Assembly: GCA_964636545.1 (NCBI GenBank)
Contig: CAZWSR010000004.1
Location: 9,524 to 73,523 of the forward strand
Length of the DNA: 64,000 nucleotides
Source of the DNA: Candidatus Undinarchaeota archaeon
Lineage (GTDB): Archaea > Undinarchaeota > Undinarchaeia > Undinarchaeales > UBA543
Reading direction: 5' to 3'
In this document: piece after piece, positions 1,774 through 61,003 of the stretch
Layout of the letters: the number at the start of each line of letters is the position of its first letter
Numbering within the stretch: position 1 is the first letter of the stretch
Translations under genes and position numbers: made by a program
Notes under the pieces: model-generated
Database searches by the model: none
What the model was told of the DNA's origin: nothing
Seen by the model: only the letters and a program-made list of their open reading frames with translations

Positions 1774-2072
1774 GTAAACAAGAATGCACAGACAAGAACT
1801 GCCCCTTGCACGGTAAAATAAGCAAGAGAGGATTTAAGCTAGAGGGAACTCTAGTTTCAGATCGCATGAAAAACAGTGCAGTTGTTGAAGTGTTAAGAGT
1901 TAGAAAAATACAGAAATATAAAAGGTATGAGAAAAGACGAACCAAAATACACGCACATAACTCTGCTTGTATTGGTGCTAAAACAGGAGATTCCGTTATT
2001 GTACAGGAATGTGCACCAATAAGCAAAACCAAATCATTTGTCATAATTAAAAAAACAGGAGCAACTGAATAA
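1767..2072 (+). CDS. rps17: 30S ribosomal protein uS17
   Basis: CTDKNCPLHG, KYKRYEKRRTKIHAH, ECAPISKTKSF. Confidence 0.96.
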   Translation: MVSKQECTDKNCPLHGKISKRGFKLEGTLVSDRMKNSAVVEVLRVRKIQKYKRYEKRRTKIHAHNSACIGAKTGDSVIVQECAPISKTKSFVIIKKTGATE

Positions 2073-2500
2073 TGGGAAAAGTAAGGAAGAAACTAAAAGT
2101 TCACGTAAAAGTGAAAGGGAATCTGTCAAGGCCCCTTACAGCGAAGTCCAGATTGACTTGTGCTGACAACACTGGTGCAAAAATCCTTGAAATAATCACA
2201 GTTAAAGTTCACAAACGCAGAAAAAGACAGATGGCAAAAGCAGGCATAGGCGACATGGTAATGTGCTCTGTAAAAGAAGGTTCACCAGATATCAAAAAGC
2301 AGGTTGTTCCTGCAGTCATAATCAGGCAAAGAAAGGAAATATTCCGTGCAGATGGTACTCGAATGAAATTTGATGACAATGCTGCAGTTATTGTAACGCC
2401 TGAAGGTGAATCAAAAGGTAGTGAAATTAGAGGTCCTGTAGCTAGAGAAGCTGTCCAGAAATGGTCTGGAATAGCTAGTGCAGCGAAATTGGTGGTATAA
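2072..2500 (+). CDS. rpl14: 50S ribosomal protein uL14
   Basis: CADNTGAK, AVIIRQRK, FDDNAAVIV, GPVAREA. Confidence 0.97.
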   Translation: MGKVRKKLKVHVKVKGNLSRPLTAKSRLTCADNTGAKILEIITVKVHKRRKRQMAKAGIGDMVMCSVKEGSPDIKKQVVPAVIIRQRKEIFRADGTRMKFDDNAAVIVTPEGESKGSEIRGPVAREAVQKWSGIASAAKLVV

Positions 2501-2502
2501 AA

Positions 2503-3012
2503 ATGAAAACAAACTGGTCAAACACTTGGAAAAAATCTGTTCAACCAAGAAGACAGAGGAAATACCTAATCAAAGCACCATTGCACGTAAGGCATAAATT
2601 ACTTTCAGTTCATGTTGACAAAACTCTCAGAGAAAAAATAAAGAAACGCGCAATTCCTGTTCGAAAAGGTGATGAAGTCAAGGTTATGCGCGGAAAAAGA
2701 AAAGGGATGAAAGCAAAAGTTGTATCAATAAATACAAAAAAGAAATTTGTTTTCCTAGAAGGTCAGACACGTGAAAATATTCGAGGCACAAAAGTGCTTA
2801 TCCCATTCAGTCCATCAAACCTGCTTTTGATTACTATGAAAGATGACAAAAGAAGAAACAGGCAGGGAAAAAAGGTTGTGAAAACAAAACCAGTGCCAAA
2901 AACTGAAAAGAAAGTTGAGAAAAAACCAGAAAAAAAAGAAGAAAAAGTTAAGAAGAAGGAAGAGAAAAAGAAAGAAGCCCCAAAAACCCCAACTAAAGAG
3001 GTAAAAAAATGA
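2503..3012 (+). CDS. rpl24: 50S ribosomal protein uL24 with K/E-rich tail
   Basis: SVQPRRQRK, APLHVR, PVRKGDEVKVMRG, PSNL. Confidence 0.96.
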   Translation: MKTNWSNTWKKSVQPRRQRKYLIKAPLHVRHKLLSVHVDKTLREKIKKRAIPVRKGDEVKVMRGKRKGMKAKVVSINTKKKFVFLEGQTRENIRGTKVLIPFSPSNLLLITMKDDKRRNRQGKKVVKTKPVPKTEKKVEKKPEKKEEKVKKKEEKKKEAPKTPTKEVKK

Positions 3013-3680
3013 GCCACTTAAAAAGATTAGCAGCACCAAAAACATGGAATATCTCTAGAAAAGATAACACTTTCATAGTTACACCTAACCCAGGACCTCA
3101 CAAAAAAGAACACTCAATACCATTAGTTGTTCTAATTCGTGATATGATTGGAATAGTAGACAATGCAAAAGAATGCAAAAATATCCTCCATACTGGACAG
3201 GTCTTAATTAATGGAAGAAAAAGACGAGAAAATAACTATCCAGTTGGTTTAATGGATATTATTGAATTACCGCTTACAAAGAAATCATACAAGCTTATGA
3301 TCAGCACCAAAGGAAAACTATTTGCGAAAGAACTTGAAAAATCTGAAGACAGAATGTGCAGAATTGAAGGAAAAACAATTCTTGCAAACAAGAAAGTACA
3401 GCTTAACTTGTTTGGTGGCGAAAACATAATCATTGATAAAGATGAATACAAAGTTGGAGATACAATAAAACTCGATGTCAAAGATAGAAAAGTAAAAGGG
3501 AGTGTTGTGCTCAGCAAAGGTGTACCTGCATTAATTATTGGTGGAAGCCACGTTGGCGAAATCGCAGTAATTAAAGGTATTGACAAGAGTATTGCACCAA
3601 CTGAAATCATATTGGAGGATGAGAGCCAAAAAGAGATACGCACACGCTTGTACAATGTGTATCCAATTGAACAAAAATGA
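3009..3680 (+). CDS. rps4e: 30S ribosomal protein eS4
   Basis: HLKRLAAPKTW, PGPH, YPVGLMDII, GGSHVGE. Confidence 0.96.
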   Translation: MSHLKRLAAPKTWNISRKDNTFIVTPNPGPHKKEHSIPLVVLIRDMIGIVDNAKECKNILHTGQVLINGRKRRENNYPVGLMDIIELPLTKKSYKLMISTKGKLFAKELEKSEDRMCRIEGKTILANKKVQLNLFGGENIIIDKDEYKVGDTIKLDVKDRKVKGSVVLSKGVPALIIGGSHVGEIAVIKGIDKSIAPTEIILEDESQKEIRTRLYNVYPIEQK

Positions 3681-4174
3681 AAGAAGTAAAAATCGCAAAA
3701 GTTACAGCAAATATTGGAGTTGGTGAATCTGGTGACAAGCTTCAAAGAGCAGAGAAGCTTCTAGAGGAACTTACAGGTCAGAAACCGGCAAGAGGGGTTG
3801 CAATGGCAACACATCCTGAATTCGGTGTTAAACGGTACTCTCCAATTGGTACAAAAGTTACACTCAGAAAGAAAATCGCAGTTGATTTTCTAAAAAAAGC
3901 ACTTGAAGCTGTTGAAAACAAGGTGCAAAGAAAACAATATGATATGCACGGAAATCTCTCATTCGGAATACACGAATATATTGAAATGCCTGGTGCAAAA
4001 TATGATCCAGATATTGGTATGTTTGGATTAGATGTTTCAGTTAATCTTGAAAGACCAGGATACAGAATCTCTCGCAGAAAAAAACATCCTGCCAAAATCC
4101 CAGCACGATCACGCATAACAAAAGAAGAATCAGTAGAATTCTTCAAGAAAAACTTTGGAGTTGAAACAGAATAA
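3677..4174 (+). CDS. rpl5: 50S ribosomal protein uL5
   Basis: NIGVGESGD, PIGTKVTLR, GNLSFGIHEYI, YDPDIGMFG. Confidence 0.97.
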   Translation: MKEVKIAKVTANIGVGESGDKLQRAEKLLEELTGQKPARGVAMATHPEFGVKRYSPIGTKVTLRKKIAVDFLKKALEAVENKVQRKQYDMHGNLSFGIHEYIEMPGAKYDPDIGMFGLDVSVNLERPGYRISRRKKHPAKIPARSRITKEESVEFFKKNFGVETE

Positions 4175-57260: not shown

Positions 57261-57956
57261 TTACTTTCCGCGCATTTTAACAACTGTTGCATGTTTTTCT
57301 GCAATTTCAACAAATGGCTTCATTTCATCATCTGTTTGCGGTTTTTTCTCATTAAATTTTGGATCAAGACACATTCCAGAGCGGAATTTTTGAATGCAAA
57401 ACTTTTTTGCGCCACTAACTTGAGCTACAAGTTTTTCAAAAACTTCTAGAGTATGCAACTCAGGAACAATTGTTGTTCTAAATTCATAATCAATTCCAGA
57501 ATCCATTATTAATTTAACACTTTCTTTTAATTGTTCAGCATTAAATGGAACTCCAATAAAATCCCCATAATTTTCCCATGGCCCTTTAATATCCATTGCT
57601 ACAAAATCAACTAGCTTAGAATCAATTAATGTTTTCAGAACCTCAGGATTTGTACCATTTGTATCTAATTTAACAAGAAAGTCCTTGCCCTTTAACTTTT
57701 GACAGAAATCAACAAGGCCAGATGACAGAGTTGGTTCGCCGCCTGTAATACATACACCATCAATAAAGTCATTGTGTTTTTCAATAAATGCAAATACAAC
57801 ATCTTCAGGAACATCCACGACAGTGTCTGGTTCTAGCACTAATGCACCATTAAAACAAAAACCGCATTGGAAATTACATCCTCCTGTAAAAACAACAGAA
57901 CAAACCTGTCCGTCCCAATCTACAAAACTGGTTTCAACAAATCCTTTTAGTTTCAT
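57261..57956 (-). CDS. nrdG: anaerobic ribonucleotide reductase activating enzyme (radical SAM)
   Basis: GCNFQCGFC, ITGGEPT, KLDTNG, AMDIK, YEFRTT. Confidence 0.93.
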   Translation of the reverse strand: MKLKGFVETSFVDWDGQVCSVVFTGGCNFQCGFCFNGALVLEPDTVVDVPEDVVFAFIEKHNDFIDGVCITGGEPTLSSGLVDFCQKLKGKDFLVKLDTNGTNPEVLKTLIDSKLVDFVAMDIKGPWENYGDFIGVPFNAEQLKESVKLIMDSGIDYEFRTTIVPELHTLEVFEKLVAQVSGAKKFCIQKFRSGMCLDPKFNEKKPQTDDEMKPFVEIAEKHATVVKMRGK

Positions 57957-58255
57957 TCTTCAGTTTCTTCACTTGTTGTTTCTTGTTCAGGTTCAGTAGC
58001 CCCGCTGAAATATTCCTTTATTTTTTCTGCATCGGGAGGTGCACCTCGCCAGGAATCAAGTTCTTTTCCAGAATCATCAACAAGCACAGCACTTGGCGTT
58101 GACAAAACCATGTAAAAACTGCCCTCTGTCAGTCCATCAACTTCCTCAGTATCATAATACTCTATGGGAATTCCAGCTTCCTCTAGATCTTTCGCGATCT
58201 TTTTTGCTGGCGGACAGTTAGGACAGTCTTTTTTGGTAAATACTTTAAGCTTCAT
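57953..58255 (-). CDS. thioredoxin/NrdH-like redoxin
   Basis: CPNC active site, V.STP cis-Pro loop; within the nrd operon. Confidence 0.88.
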   Translation of the reverse strand: MKLKVFTKKDCPNCPPAKKIAKDLEEAGIPIEYYDTEEVDGLTEGSFYMVLSTPSAVLVDDSGKELDSWRGAPPDAEKIKEYFSGATEPEQETTSEETEE

Positions 58256-58279: not shown

Positions 58280-58483
58280 TTAGTTGTTCTCTTTTGTTAA
58301 ACTAGAACCCTCTAAAGCACCTTTGTTTGCATGTATTGCGTCTCTTCGTTTTTTAAGCTCGCCGATTTTGCCCTTGTTCCAAGAATTTACCTTGGAAAAG
58401 AAACCAGTGACTCGTGTCATAATCTCAATCTTTTCAGATCCGCATTCTGGGCAAGAGCCCATTGGATTTTTGTTTTCTGTCAT
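58280..58483 (-). CDS. stand-alone NrdD C-terminal glycyl-radical domain, 67 aa
   Basis: MTENKNPMGSCPECGSEKIEIMTRVTGFFSKVNSWNKGKIGELKKR; GGAGGT SD upstream of ATG 58483. Confidence 0.85.
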   Translation of the reverse strand: MTENKNPMGSCPECGSEKIEIMTRVTGFFSKVNSWNKGKIGELKKRRDAIHANKGALEGSSLTKENN

Positions 58484-58485
58484 TT

Positions 58486-60441
58486 TTACATACCTCCAAA
58501 ATCGCTTGGTATACCGCGAGTTGTCTTTGCACAATCAAGGCAGTGTGTGAACTCAGGACTAAATGCAATTTGGTCATTCGTGGTTTCCTTGAAAACCTTC
58601 TTGACAAAGTTTGAAATACTTGATGGATCAGGCCTTGATTCTCCAAGCCACAAGTGAGAAATGCTTCCTGCCTCGATCATTGGGTGGAACATTCCTTCTT
58701 TTTTAACTCTCTCAATTGGATTTACAGGAACAGAAATATTAAGCTGTGTACTGTTTGTGTAATAAATTTCATTTTTGTCAGGGAATCCCTTAACCACGGT
58801 TTTTGTTTGTTCAGGGAACATTTGCATGTCAAGACGAGCAAGTCTGTGGGCTGTACTTTCTGCAGGAGTTTGCTCTAGAACAAATTTCATGTCATATTCT
58901 TCTTTTAGTTTTTCAGTTTCTTTTTTCATTGTTGCTATGACACGCAAACCAAATTTGAAAGCGTCTTCAGATTCATGAAGCTCTTGACCAGTGTGGAATT
59001 GTACAAGTTCATTAAGCCCAACCATGCCAATTAAAAAAGATGCTTTATTGTATCTATAGTAATTTTCACCATCTTCTTTCATAGTAAGCATACCAAGCGG
59101 ACCTTTCTGTTCCATATCTAGTAAGCCCTTGACAAACTTCCTCTTTTGTGAGTGAGCTTTTCCAATTAATTGTAAATGCTCTCTCAAAAGTTCAAACAAT
59201 TTATCATCATCTCCTTTTGCTTTATATGCAATTCGCGGAAGATTAACTGTTGCAATTTGCATTGCACTGTAACGCATTTTCCAAGGAGTTTTTGCATCTT
59301 CTAAATCCTCTGCTTCTAATTTGAAGGATAATCTACAACATTCACTGATTTTTGCAGTATCTCCACGATCAAGAAGATAGTATGTATTACCCATTTCAGA
59401 AGATAATTTAGCTGCTTTTTCCAAAAATTCATCATTTCCATCTGTTTTAAAGAATTTTTCAGTTATGTGCAAATTTGGTTTTGGAAAGAAAAACGGTCTT
59501 CCGCGAGCATCTCCCTGAGTATACACTGAAAAAAGTGCAGTAATGAATCTTCTTGCATCTTCAGAATAATCCTGATAAGTTAAACCAGTGAACTCTCCCC
59601 CAGGGCCAATTGCAGGAACATTTGCAAAGTGTTTTGGAACTTCCCAATAAAGATTAAGATCTGAGAAAATACTTTGTCCACCTCGTGCAACTGCCTGTTG
59701 TGCAAATTCAAAAATAAGGATTTGTGCATATTGTTCTAATTGTTTATCTGTTTTTCCTTTAAGATATGGAGCTAAAAACAAGTTAACTGCATCCCAGCCA
59801 ATTGCTCCAGCGAAAGTACCTTGCAAAGCTGCACTGAATTTAATCATCTGACCAATAAGAACTTCAGGGTGTTTTGCTGGCTTTGCAATTGAAAGTGAAT
59901 TTGGAAGAGAAAGACCGAATTTTTTAACATATTCTAGTGAATTTCCTGAACAATATGGCCTGTCAATAAAACCAAGGTCGTGCAAGTGAATATCGCCATT
60001 CATATGCGCATCAGCAGCATCTGCACTAAACACATTAAGGAGCGCATACTCCTTCTTTACACCTTCTGCAAGTGTTAGATTTGTTGCTTCTGGGCCGTGT
60101 GGAACATTAGCATTTTCTTTATTATGCGCTGTGATGATCTGCTCAACGTCAAAAATAGGGAAACCAAGACGAGTATGTTGTTTTCTGATGTTCTCATAGC
60201 CGTATTCTATGAGTTTAGCATTAACAAGTTCACGAATAAGGGGTGCAGTAATGAATTTAATGCGTTCTTTTTTAACGAATTTTTCTACTTCTGCACAGAT
60301 AAATTGAGCTACTTTTTCATCAATATCAGTTTCTTTAACAAGTGCTTCAGCTATTCGTTGTTTATCCCATTTCACAATTTGTGAACTGGATGTACGCACG
60401 AAGAGTGCGAGGTCTGTTGTTTCTGATGGTGAATTGTCCAT
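58486..60441 (-). CDS. nrdD: class III anaerobic ribonucleotide reductase large subunit lacking the glycyl-radical C-terminus
   Basis: ATP cone, H..GDIHLHDL, PYC, SECCRL finger loop, EQTPAES, YYTNS; ends CLDCAKTTRGIPSDFGGM-stop. Confidence 0.93.
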   Translation of the reverse strand: MDNSPSETTDLALFVRTSSSQIVKWDKQRIAEALVKETDIDEKVAQFICAEVEKFVKKERIKFITAPLIRELVNAKLIEYGYENIRKQHTRLGFPIFDVEQIITAHNKENANVPHGPEATNLTLAEGVKKEYALLNVFSADAADAHMNGDIHLHDLGFIDRPYCSGNSLEYVKKFGLSLPNSLSIAKPAKHPEVLIGQMIKFSAALQGTFAGAIGWDAVNLFLAPYLKGKTDKQLEQYAQILIFEFAQQAVARGGQSIFSDLNLYWEVPKHFANVPAIGPGGEFTGLTYQDYSEDARRFITALFSVYTQGDARGRPFFFPKPNLHITEKFFKTDGNDEFLEKAAKLSSEMGNTYYLLDRGDTAKISECCRLSFKLEAEDLEDAKTPWKMRYSAMQIATVNLPRIAYKAKGDDDKLFELLREHLQLIGKAHSQKRKFVKGLLDMEQKGPLGMLTMKEDGENYYRYNKASFLIGMVGLNELVQFHTGQELHESEDAFKFGLRVIATMKKETEKLKEEYDMKFVLEQTPAESTAHRLARLDMQMFPEQTKTVVKGFPDKNEIYYTNSTQLNISVPVNPIERVKKEGMFHPMIEAGSISHLWLGESRPDPSSISNFVKKVFKETTNDQIAFSPEFTHCLDCAKTTRGIPSDFGGM

Positions 60442-60466
60442 TTTACTACTCCTTGGTGAAAAAACT

Positions 60467-60550
60467 GTTCGGTTATCGCCGAACTATTATAGTTACAAAG
60501 CGTTTATATGCTTTTACATACTCTAGAATATAGTTCGGTGTTTGGCGAAC
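60467..60550. promoter_or_regulatory. two TTCG-N8-CGAA operator boxes flanking the nrdD TATA box
   Basis: gttcggttatcgccgaac (60467-60484) and gttcggtgtttggcgaac (60533-60550); minus-strand aaaagcatataaa between them. Confidence 0.75.
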
Positions 60551-60554
60551 AAAA

Positions 60555-60626
60555 ATAGAGTTTAGAATTTAGATTTTAGAATTTAGAGTATATTCTAAAC
60601 TCCAAACTCCAAACTCCAAACTACAA
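60555..60626. repeat. palindromic heptamer array, class 3
   Basis: atagagt-ttagaat-ttagatt-ttagaat-ttagagt-AT-attctaa-actccaa-actccaa-actccaa-actacaa. Confidence 0.88.
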
Positions 60627-60661: not shown

Positions 60662-61003
60662 ATGGATCGTGAACCATCAGAGCCAAAAGGACATTTTGAA
60701 TTATATGCATCTAAAGACGAAATTATAGATTTGCGTGATCCAACAAGAATTAGAATAGTACACCTTCTTGCTGATTCTACAAAAGAATTTGATGAAATTG
60801 TGTCATTTATTGGCAAAGCAAAATCAACAATATCCGTGCATCTTGACACATTAGAACAGCGTGGTTTAATTAAAGCAATTGTAAATGAAAAAGATGCTCG
60901 TAGAAAAAGCTATAAGCTAGTTGCAAAACTAATTGCAATGTCAAGCAAAAATGATGCGAAGATTTATGTTGCTGACAAAAATTATTTTGAGGGACTGGGA
61001 TGA
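60662..61003 (+). CDS. ArsR-type wHTH regulator resembling the N-terminal domain of MsvR
   Basis: DPTRIRIVHLL....KEFDEIV..IGKAKSTISVHL..L...GLI.......DARRKSY. Confidence 0.85.
   Translation: MDREPSEPKGHFELYASKDEIIDLRDPTRIRIVHLLADSTKEFDEIVSFIGKAKSTISVHLDTLEQRGLIKAIVNEKDARRKSYKLVAKLIAMSSKNDAKIYVADKNYFEGLG

Follow-up and report, generated by a model that had tools for sequence, protein, structure and literature searches.

The 64,000-nucleotide stretch of Candidatus Undinarchaeota archaeon DNA analysed here (the window) carries on its minus strand a compact operon for a class III ribonucleotide reductase (RNR), with the gene order nrdD body, radical piece, redoxin and nrdG. The nrdD body (58486..60441) encodes 651 amino acids comprising an ATP-cone-like N-terminus, the catalytic barrel and the first half of a Zn ribbon, and it has no glycyl-radical loop. 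It covers positions 1-517 of the 562 in the Pfam NRDD profile (PF13597; E 4.8e-129) and scores 394.9 bits against TIGR02487 (cut-off 326.35), which identifies it as a class III RNR catalytic subunit. Positions 522-560 of the same 562 (E 9.9e-11; 41.4 bits, cut-off 26.2) are matched by the product of the next gene (58280..58483, stop included), a radical subunit of 67 amino acids with the second CxxC of the Zn site, a docking strand, the glycyl-radical loop and a variable charged tail. Next in the operon is a gene for a 100-amino-acid thioredoxin-like redoxin with a CPNC motif (57953..58255; Pfam Thioredoxin_3, 27.7 bits, cut-off 24.8), the presumed reductant of the enzyme. The operon also includes a dedicated activase gene, nrdG (57261..57956), whose start overlaps the end of the redoxin gene and which encodes a 231-amino-acid radical S-adenosylmethionine (SAM) protein (TIGR02495 NrdG2; 191.8 bits, cut-off 131.15).

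The body ends in HC634LDC637AKTTRGIPSDFGGM and a stop codon, 14 residues (AKTTRGIPSDFGGM) past the first CxxC (C634-L-D-C637; 58531..58542). The junction reads GGAGGT(58497-58492)-ATG-TAA(58488-58486)-AA-ATG(58483-58481), such that the Shine-Dalgarno-like site of the small gene (58492..58497) lies within the last nrdD codons and the small open reading frame is in a different frame from nrdD. The small protein (MTENKNPMGSC11PEC14GSEKIEIMTRVTG27FFSKVNSWNKGKIGELKKRR, then a charged tail) is marked by C11PEC14 (58442..58453), R24VTG27FF, WNKGK and E42..R46. The four cysteines of the metal site are therefore present by sequence as two pairs, the body supplying C634/C637 and the small chain C11/C14, and the RVxG[FYW] glycyl-radical loop (R24-V-T-G27-F; codon of the presumed radical glycine, Gly27, at 58403..58405) is found on the 67-residue chain and not on the body. 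Barrel and radical domain do not share one polypeptide: between them lie a stop codon and a change of frame, and the radical domain has its own Shine-Dalgarno-like site and ATG. An earlier note, made from the sequence alone, had described the stop 14 residues past the first CxxC and the placement of the second CxxC and the RVTGF loop in a following frame with its own GGAGGT, and all of these are present. It had also argued that a spacer of about 25 residues between the CxxC pairs was unlike NrdD and made a sequencing slip unlikely; the distance is indeed 14 + 10 residues here, against 10 in fused relatives (17 in locus L090).

The catalytic residues are also kept. Cys368-Cys369 in the finger loop (SECCRLS; 59335..59340) line up with the CC of Thermotoga maritima NrdD (4coi) and are presumed to be the thiyl-radical and resolving cysteines. 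In an alignment of 43 split bodies C164, C368, C369, C634 and C637 are all invariant (the first CxxC in 43/43), and the second CxxC and the TRVTGFF motif are invariant in all 22 aligned small proteins. At the other end of the body, residues 14-85 (60187..60402) resemble an ATP cone (Pfam PF03477) at 25.7 bits, just below the 25.8 cut-off, and this domain is present in the precomputed Pfam matches of many relatives.

A sequencing or assembly frameshift, or a recently decayed pseudogene, could be suspected at such a junction: a single indel would leave two pieces of one family offset by 2 nucleotides. The region 58470-58540, across which the earlier note had wanted reads mapped, is bridged by Logan contigs of four runs from four different studies with no gaps and zero or one differing letters, two further runs that might be the source of the window having been excluded. 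The junction also varies within the genus of the window genome (G000; 840 kb in 39 contigs, 82.8% complete): it reads TAA-AA-ATG in the window, TAA-AAA-ATG (in frame) in one of the two congeners (G001 and G002) and TAA-A-ATG (third frame) in the other, and GGAGGT is kept in each, so that all three frame relations occur among three close relatives. Over 23 split loci the three frame offsets are represented by 11, 6 and 6 loci, a Shine-Dalgarno-like site precedes the start of the small gene by 7-11 nucleotides in 22, and the start codon is ATG in 22 and GTG in one. The body stop and the start of the small gene are -4 to +226 nucleotides apart (-4 to +20 in 18 of the 23), and the body tail and small-protein N-terminus sum to a linker of 10-28 residues. 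The adjacent small gene has a ratio of non-synonymous to synonymous substitution rates (dN/dS) of 0.084 between G001 and G002; the other two pairs of adjacent genes are saturated, with synonymous differences of 24.5/30.5 and 22.5/29.5 against non-synonymous differences of 13.5/110.5 and 14.5/111.5. Finally, a search for the class I/II RNR barrel (PF02867), positive in 12 of 14 control genomes, found no match in G000, G001, G002 or G016 (72-83% complete), and on present data the split enzyme is the only RNR. Together with the 21 of 80 species loci and 57 of 120 clusters that are split (see below) and a dN/dS of about 0.1, these observations leave the frameshift or pseudogene explanation a negligible probability, and it is refuted as far as sequence data can do so.

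The short distance between stop and restart, just 2 nucleotides in the window, could also point to programmed recoding, in which a frameshift or stop read-through would yield a single fused chain. Recoding is very improbable in view of the variation just described: close relatives are not alike in their frame relation (0, +1 and +2), the stop codons differ, the gaps reach 226 nucleotides, no conserved slippery site is found, and the small gene has its own start as well as its own Shine-Dalgarno-like site in 22 of the 23 loci. The pattern of frames, Shine-Dalgarno-like sites and gaps across these loci and within the genus excludes both a sequencing slip and recoding, and indicates that body and small gene are translated independently, though probably in a coupled manner. 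An intein or intron as the cause of the split was rejected, the junction being 2 nucleotides long.

The small gene is further set apart from the body by its fusion, in other genomes, to a different partner. At ten loci of Hydrothermarchaeota type (L031-L040) the frame of the radical piece runs on to 159-201 amino acids; in all five of these loci that were read the extension is the downstream redoxin (..RIKLFWK.NCPRCP..), and in three (L031, L036 and L037) Pfam confirms NRDD positions 521-560 followed by Thioredoxin_3. Such extended frames are also at odds with recoding. Since the radical piece is fused here to the redoxin and not to the body, it can function only in trans to the body, and the fusion appears to tie the redoxin functionally to the RNR. 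The order body, small gene, redoxin and nrdG recurs with small variations in the split loci inspected. We also note that in Hydrothermarchaeota and 'Ca. Pyrohabitans' the radical piece and a thioredoxin-like redoxin form one protein of 156-161 amino acids (e.g., 2977..3447 on the plus strand of L036).

The earlier note had asked whether the same split occurs in related genomes, and it does so widely. Searching with the small protein retrieved 22 proteins of 44-116 amino acids (query included), each with its own Met and on contigs of up to 169 kb, which share the invariant core C..C.S...E..TRVTGFFSK...WN.GK..EL..R between variable charged tails. Searching with the body gave 3848 proteins at E <= 1e-20, and the best 120 clusters (65-92% identity) were classified: 57 end 2-14 residues past the first CxxC (tails such as ..CLDCGKTVRGLH, ..CLDCGRVDRGLW and ..CLDCGKNS), 60 are fused (..CLDCGKTxRGLxxxCxxCxSxxxEGITRVTGFFSK..) and three have odd tails. 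A pattern scan that covered each prokaryote species with one genome yielded 192 relatives, and the best 80 of these loci comprise 21 split with an adjoining small gene, 56 fused, two unlinked copies and one odd case (L070) with a fused tail and a stop farther upstream. By record title, split loci belong to Undinarchaeota (the genus of the window), many Hydrothermarchaeota, "Candidatus Pyrohabitans", a Micrarchaeota genome and one Patescibacteria bacterium, and fused loci mainly to Thermoplasmata and Methanomassiliicoccales. Among 17 genomes of the window's phylum the split is found in all three of the genus and in one other family (G016), and five others have a fused NrdD. The fused relatives found by the body search and species scan have a near-identical radical loop; a search for longer relatives of the small protein itself gave two matches (119 and 136 amino acids) among 50 candidates, but this was a weak search and provides no evidence against fused kin.

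A tree of the 120 bodies was built with FastTree after trimming them ahead of the first CxxC, which kept the columns of the trait itself out of it. In this tree 55 of the 57 split bodies fall to the same side of a branch with local support of 95. The remaining two lie beside a fused pair, requiring at least two changes between the split and fused states; none of 500 label shuffles gave a value as low. Because the split bodies cluster on the tree, we read the split state as one that, on these sequences, is stably inherited across deep divergence. Taken together, conservation, separate Shine-Dalgarno-like sites and starts, all three frame relations, purifying selection and the lack of another detected RNR strongly support the proposal of a naturally split, two-chain class III RNR, and we consider it probable that the operon encodes a working enzyme of two separately translated polypeptides.

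Such a split need not have brought any advantage. Under neutral gene fission the two chains would form an obligate heterodimer acting like one-chain NrdD, with neither exchange of the small chain nor any benefit for repair or in oxygen. Several of the observations above suit this account: the split falls in the linker between the two CxxC pairs, which spans 10 residues in fused relatives; a gap of -4 to +20 nucleotides in 18 of 23 loci suits coupled 1:1 synthesis; and among close relatives the fused form is about as frequent as the split one, neither being clearly superior. The need for at least two split/fused changes on the tree counts to some extent in the other direction. On balance, and given the evidence for action in trans presented below, we regard neutral fission as a serious but unlikely explanation.

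Several variants were encountered in the course of these searches. Two small radical proteins of 104-116 amino acids (P0019 and P0020) have an extra N-terminal zinc ribbon (CxxC...CxxC) before the usual CxxC. A locus whose record title is Patescibacteria group bacterium (L095) has an archaeal-type split operon consisting of body, a 58-amino-acid piece (from its ATG), nrdG and redoxin, which suggests transfer between domains; it is the single one of the 23 split loci without a Shine-Dalgarno-like site. Three genomes (G006, G009 and G012) of the order to which the window genome belongs encode a 606-amino-acid NrdD-like protein with an ATP-cone-like start (1906..3726 on the minus strand of L025 in G006) and with no CC finger loop, CxxC pairs or radical loop, and a Pfam NRDD search found no small radical gene in any of the three; this protein may be a catalytically dead paralogue or part of a very divergent system. 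At two further places (G013:C31:10800-13733 and G039:C1:897707-900790) the NrdD match is in two pieces inside single frames of 1138 and 1217 amino acids, respectively, as expected of nrdD genes that contain inteins.

How the two chains might fit together was examined by modelling the complex from the body alignment, the small-protein alignment and Zn. The model reached an interface score (ipSAE) of 0.87 (0.88, 0.86 and 0.87 in separate runs), compared to 0.01 for the best control; the mark used is reached by 58 of 80 solved complexes and two of 110 mismatched pairs. The partner has a predicted local distance difference test (pLDDT) score of 76-77, and at least 85% of contacts are common to the runs. 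Modelled contacts join body residues 368-370 and 629-637 to small-protein residues 18-30, those of lowest predicted error being a strand pair between body 629-635 and small-protein 18-23 and the contact of C634 with C11. The modelled arrangement is that of canonical NrdD, which shows likeness and is not proof that the two chains bind: the solved structures most similar to the body are one-chain NrdDs (9d3x, T. maritima 4coi/4u3e, Prevotella copri 8p23 and T4 1h78), and because such structures are solved, passing the mark may be a memory of the fold. Restoration of the canonical arrangement is also what neutral fission would predict. The idea that the chains are joined through a shared Zn, and that a predicted heterocomplex would reveal it, has indirect support, in that both cysteine pairs are invariant and the small protein is modelled in its canonical position with C634 beside C11, whereas the pass itself may reflect likeness to one-chain NrdD. 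From the conserved cysteines and the model, we consider an inter-chain Zn site likely.

In the mechanism that we propose, one Zn held between the chains by the two CxxC pairs would tether the small protein, a strand of which would pair with body residues 629-637. NrdG with SAM would abstract a hydrogen from Gly27, and the glycine loop, lying against Cys368/369 inside the barrel, would generate the thiyl radical; the NTP would then be reduced and the resulting disulfide re-reduced by the adjacent thioredoxin-like protein. Oxygen cleaves glycyl-radical enzymes at the glycine, as established for pyruvate formate-lyase (PFL) and NrdD. Because the radical carrier here is a separate short chain, such cleavage would cost the cell only that chain (about 7-7.5 kDa), and a fresh copy could dock in its place, supplied either by the adjacent gene or by an unlinked copy described below. 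Zn sharing, activation, the role of the reductant, chain exchange and the benefit in oxygen are all inferred, and a function as a replaceable cartridge conferring oxygen tolerance is plausible but speculative.

The unlinked copy lies on another contig of the window genome (C9; L003 1459..1635, minus strand) and encodes a radical domain of 58 amino acids (MTETQLGTCQECGS..TRVTGFF..). Divergent from it is a gene for an HxlR-family regulator (L003 1712..2071, plus strand; E 4e-23), and beyond it on the minus strand lies a gene (L003 665..1447) for a 260-amino-acid protein that has a 4Fe-4S dicluster domain at its N-terminus and is Cys-rich in its C-terminal part, which gave no family match. HxlR regulator, 58-residue copy and 4Fe-4S protein are kept together in all three genomes of the genus, and the dN/dS of the copy is 0.11-0.13. 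The copy probably serves as a second source of the radical piece. Thiol-based oxidant sensors are found among HxlR/DUF24-family regulators, and the regulator here matches the redox regulator RrpB at 50 bits, below the cut-off of 175. The retention under purifying selection, in all three genomes, of an unlinked copy beside its own regulator is difficult to reconcile with neutral fission.

Free radical pieces also occur where the body is not split at all. Two unrelated archaeal genomes (G030 and G033) encode an intact full-length NrdD together with free pieces. The piece of G030 (L021 1956..2204, plus strand; 82 amino acids) combines a CxxC...CxxxC domain of its own with a core, YSRITGYYQNISGWNKGKLAELRDRKRY, that is near-identical to the C-terminus of the genome's own NrdD, and it adjoins a divergent HxlR gene (E 3.2e-25). 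That of G033 (L023 1598..1891, plus strand; 97 amino acids) joins a Cys-free N-terminal domain to a core like that of its own NrdD, and of the two nrdG2 genes in this genome one lies directly downstream of the piece; a search with the G033 piece found this type in none of the other four genomes of its phylum (five genomes in total). When 1.84 billion representative proteins were scanned in full by HMMER, the G030 piece had 311 matches at E <= 0.001; among the best 150 of these, 112 are at most 160 amino acids long, and 102 of those 112 begin with Met. The matches include a Zn domain plus radical loop, a Cys-free domain of about 65 amino acids plus radical loop, very short forms of 50-70 amino acids, a coiled coil plus radical loop, and a radical loop plus redoxin; some of the short ones are clearly gene fragments. 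An Atlas look-up, which yields leads only, placed the G030 piece with 27 clusters at >= 0.9, consisting of NRDD-only proteins of about 80-105 amino acids, and gave matches below 0.9 for the G033 piece.

Proteins of about 100 amino acids with a Cys-free N-terminal domain and an NrdD-type radical loop form a coherent family that extends to viruses. Of 32 IMG/VR loci with this family (L109-L140), 22 have the radical loop in a small frame, nine have an ordinary fused NrdD and one is odd. In each of the five viral records checked in full (those behind L111, L117, L118, L122 and L129) NRDD matches nothing but the small piece, and a body is absent; two of the five are complete with terminal repeats (91 and 60 kb). 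The other 17 small-frame loci were screened within 4 kb on either side with an archaeal body profile. That these pieces are halves of split viral NrdDs was considered and rejected for the five records, all of which lack a body. A tblastn search of GenBank phages with one such piece (P0227) found no match at E 1e-5, and the viral evidence comes from IMG/VR contigs only. Genomes with an intact NrdD that keep free pieces, and viruses that carry the piece alone, are hard to explain by neutral fission without action in trans.

A further possibility is that the small chain is mainly a regulatory device, with RNR activity set by the amount of radical subunit and the two copies differently controlled, rather than a means of repair. 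The operon has an ArsR-type gene upstream, compared to the HxlR-type gene beside the unlinked copy, and the free piece of G033 is co-located with nrdG2, both of which would suit such control. The adjacent copy, however, appears to be translationally coupled to the body, leaving little room for separate control, and we regard a mainly regulatory role as rather improbable.

With respect to the upstream ArsR-type gene, we note that it is divergent from the operon (60662..61003) and encodes a 113-amino-acid ArsR/MarR-type winged-helix regulator. The region between it and nrdD (60466-60621) is packed with repeats, including two GTTCGG..CGCCGAAC-type elements 66 nucleotides apart and a 28-nucleotide inverted repeat of TAGA(A/G)TTT units. 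These repeats may be operator sites of the operon.

Returning to the replaceable cartridge, the unlinked copy beside an HxlR gene, the free pieces beside full-length NrdD and the pieces found alone in viruses provide circumstantial support for it at the level of sequence. The stretch analysed here is present in metagenomes from 15 studies of marine, seawater and hydrothermal-vent origin, habitats that are compatible with occasional exposure to oxygen and prove nothing. In its widest form, the proposal would be that NrdD-type radical domains are a widespread class of free, exchangeable subunits and the first spare-part system outside PFL: they would be activated by NrdG off the enzyme, docked through Zn and swapped after oxygen damage, with the second copy a redox-controlled stress reserve and the viral pieces plugging into the host body to sustain dNTP synthesis in infection. 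We put this forward tentatively, as a possibility to which we give somewhat less than even weight.

Several points weigh against the readings offered above. At 82.8% completeness, the window genome could have another RNR that was missed by the assembly. The tree was made with FastTree and has local support values only, and neutral fission at a flexible linker would account equally well for a split that is inherited stably over a long time. Zn sharing draws on conserved cysteines and on a model that may recall the one-chain fold, and redox sensing by the HxlR regulator draws on general knowledge of the family and a weak, sub-threshold match.

The locus and its relatives nevertheless make the question of spare parts directly testable for class III RNR, a class that is often considered to be near the ancestral reductase. 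With its two natural chains, the enzyme would offer a 7-kDa activase substrate that may help to understand how a buried glycine loop exits the barrel to reach NrdG. The layout could let a cell replace only the fragile part, and suggests how marine archaea with tiny genomes, whose sole detected RNR is oxygen-sensitive, might cope with oxygen. For annotation, a 'NrdD' of 640-650 amino acids that ends after CLDCGK.. should not be scored as truncated or broken. Within CC-licensed PMC and bioRxiv full text we found no description of a split NrdD or of an NrdD-type spare part, a scope that leaves aside subscription journals and supplements, where a mention is possible. New here are the unlinked 58-residue copy by an HxlR regulator, the fusions of radical piece and redoxin, the free pieces beside full-length NrdD and the viral genomes that have the piece only.

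To our knowledge, barrel and radical domain are on one polypeptide in all solved and described NrdD. The window enzyme belongs by sequence to the same family as these one-chain NrdD + NrdG systems (T4 1h78, T. maritima 4coi/4u3e, P. copri 8p23 and 9d3x), with which it has in common the Cys4 site, the RVxG[FYW] loop and an NrdG2 activase, and its finger-loop cysteines are as in the T. maritima chain. The T. maritima-like type of NrdD also uses a thioredoxin-like reductant. Unlike any of them, the window enzyme is cut inside the Zn ribbon, leaving one CxxC per chain, and a second copy of the radical chain is present elsewhere in the genome. A parallel is found in the class II enzyme NrdJa/NrdJb of Pseudomonas aeruginosa, an RNR with a catalytic subunit that is naturally split and has its C-terminal part, with the Zn finger, on a second chain, as described in the passage of PMC9669993 that cites Crona et al. 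2015. NrdJa/NrdJb differs in being B12-dependent, without a glycyl radical and split at another point, and the window genome has no PF02867 match.

According to the relevant passage of a June 2026 review (PMC13450708), formate lyases constitute the sole class of glycyl-radical enzymes with known spare parts, others being yet to be determined. The small protein of the window resembles these spare parts in that it stands alone and is essentially a glycyl-radical domain, a likeness in concept only. The spare parts in question, GrcA/YfiD of E. coli and Y06I of phage T4, are autonomous glycyl-radical replacements for PFL thought to dock into the parent barrel. In contrast to GrcA, the small protein belongs to NRDD and not to Gly_radical (PF01228), a Pfam scan at E up to 0.1 giving NRDD only, and it carries half a Zn site, which GrcA is not known to do. 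The sole NrdD body of the window genome has no radical domain, which makes the small protein a constitutive subunit rather than a replacement. A full-length parent, with which GrcA coexists, is thus lacking in the window genome but present for the free pieces of G030 and G033, and the NrdD-type pieces found alone in viruses parallel what phage T4 Y06I is for PFL.

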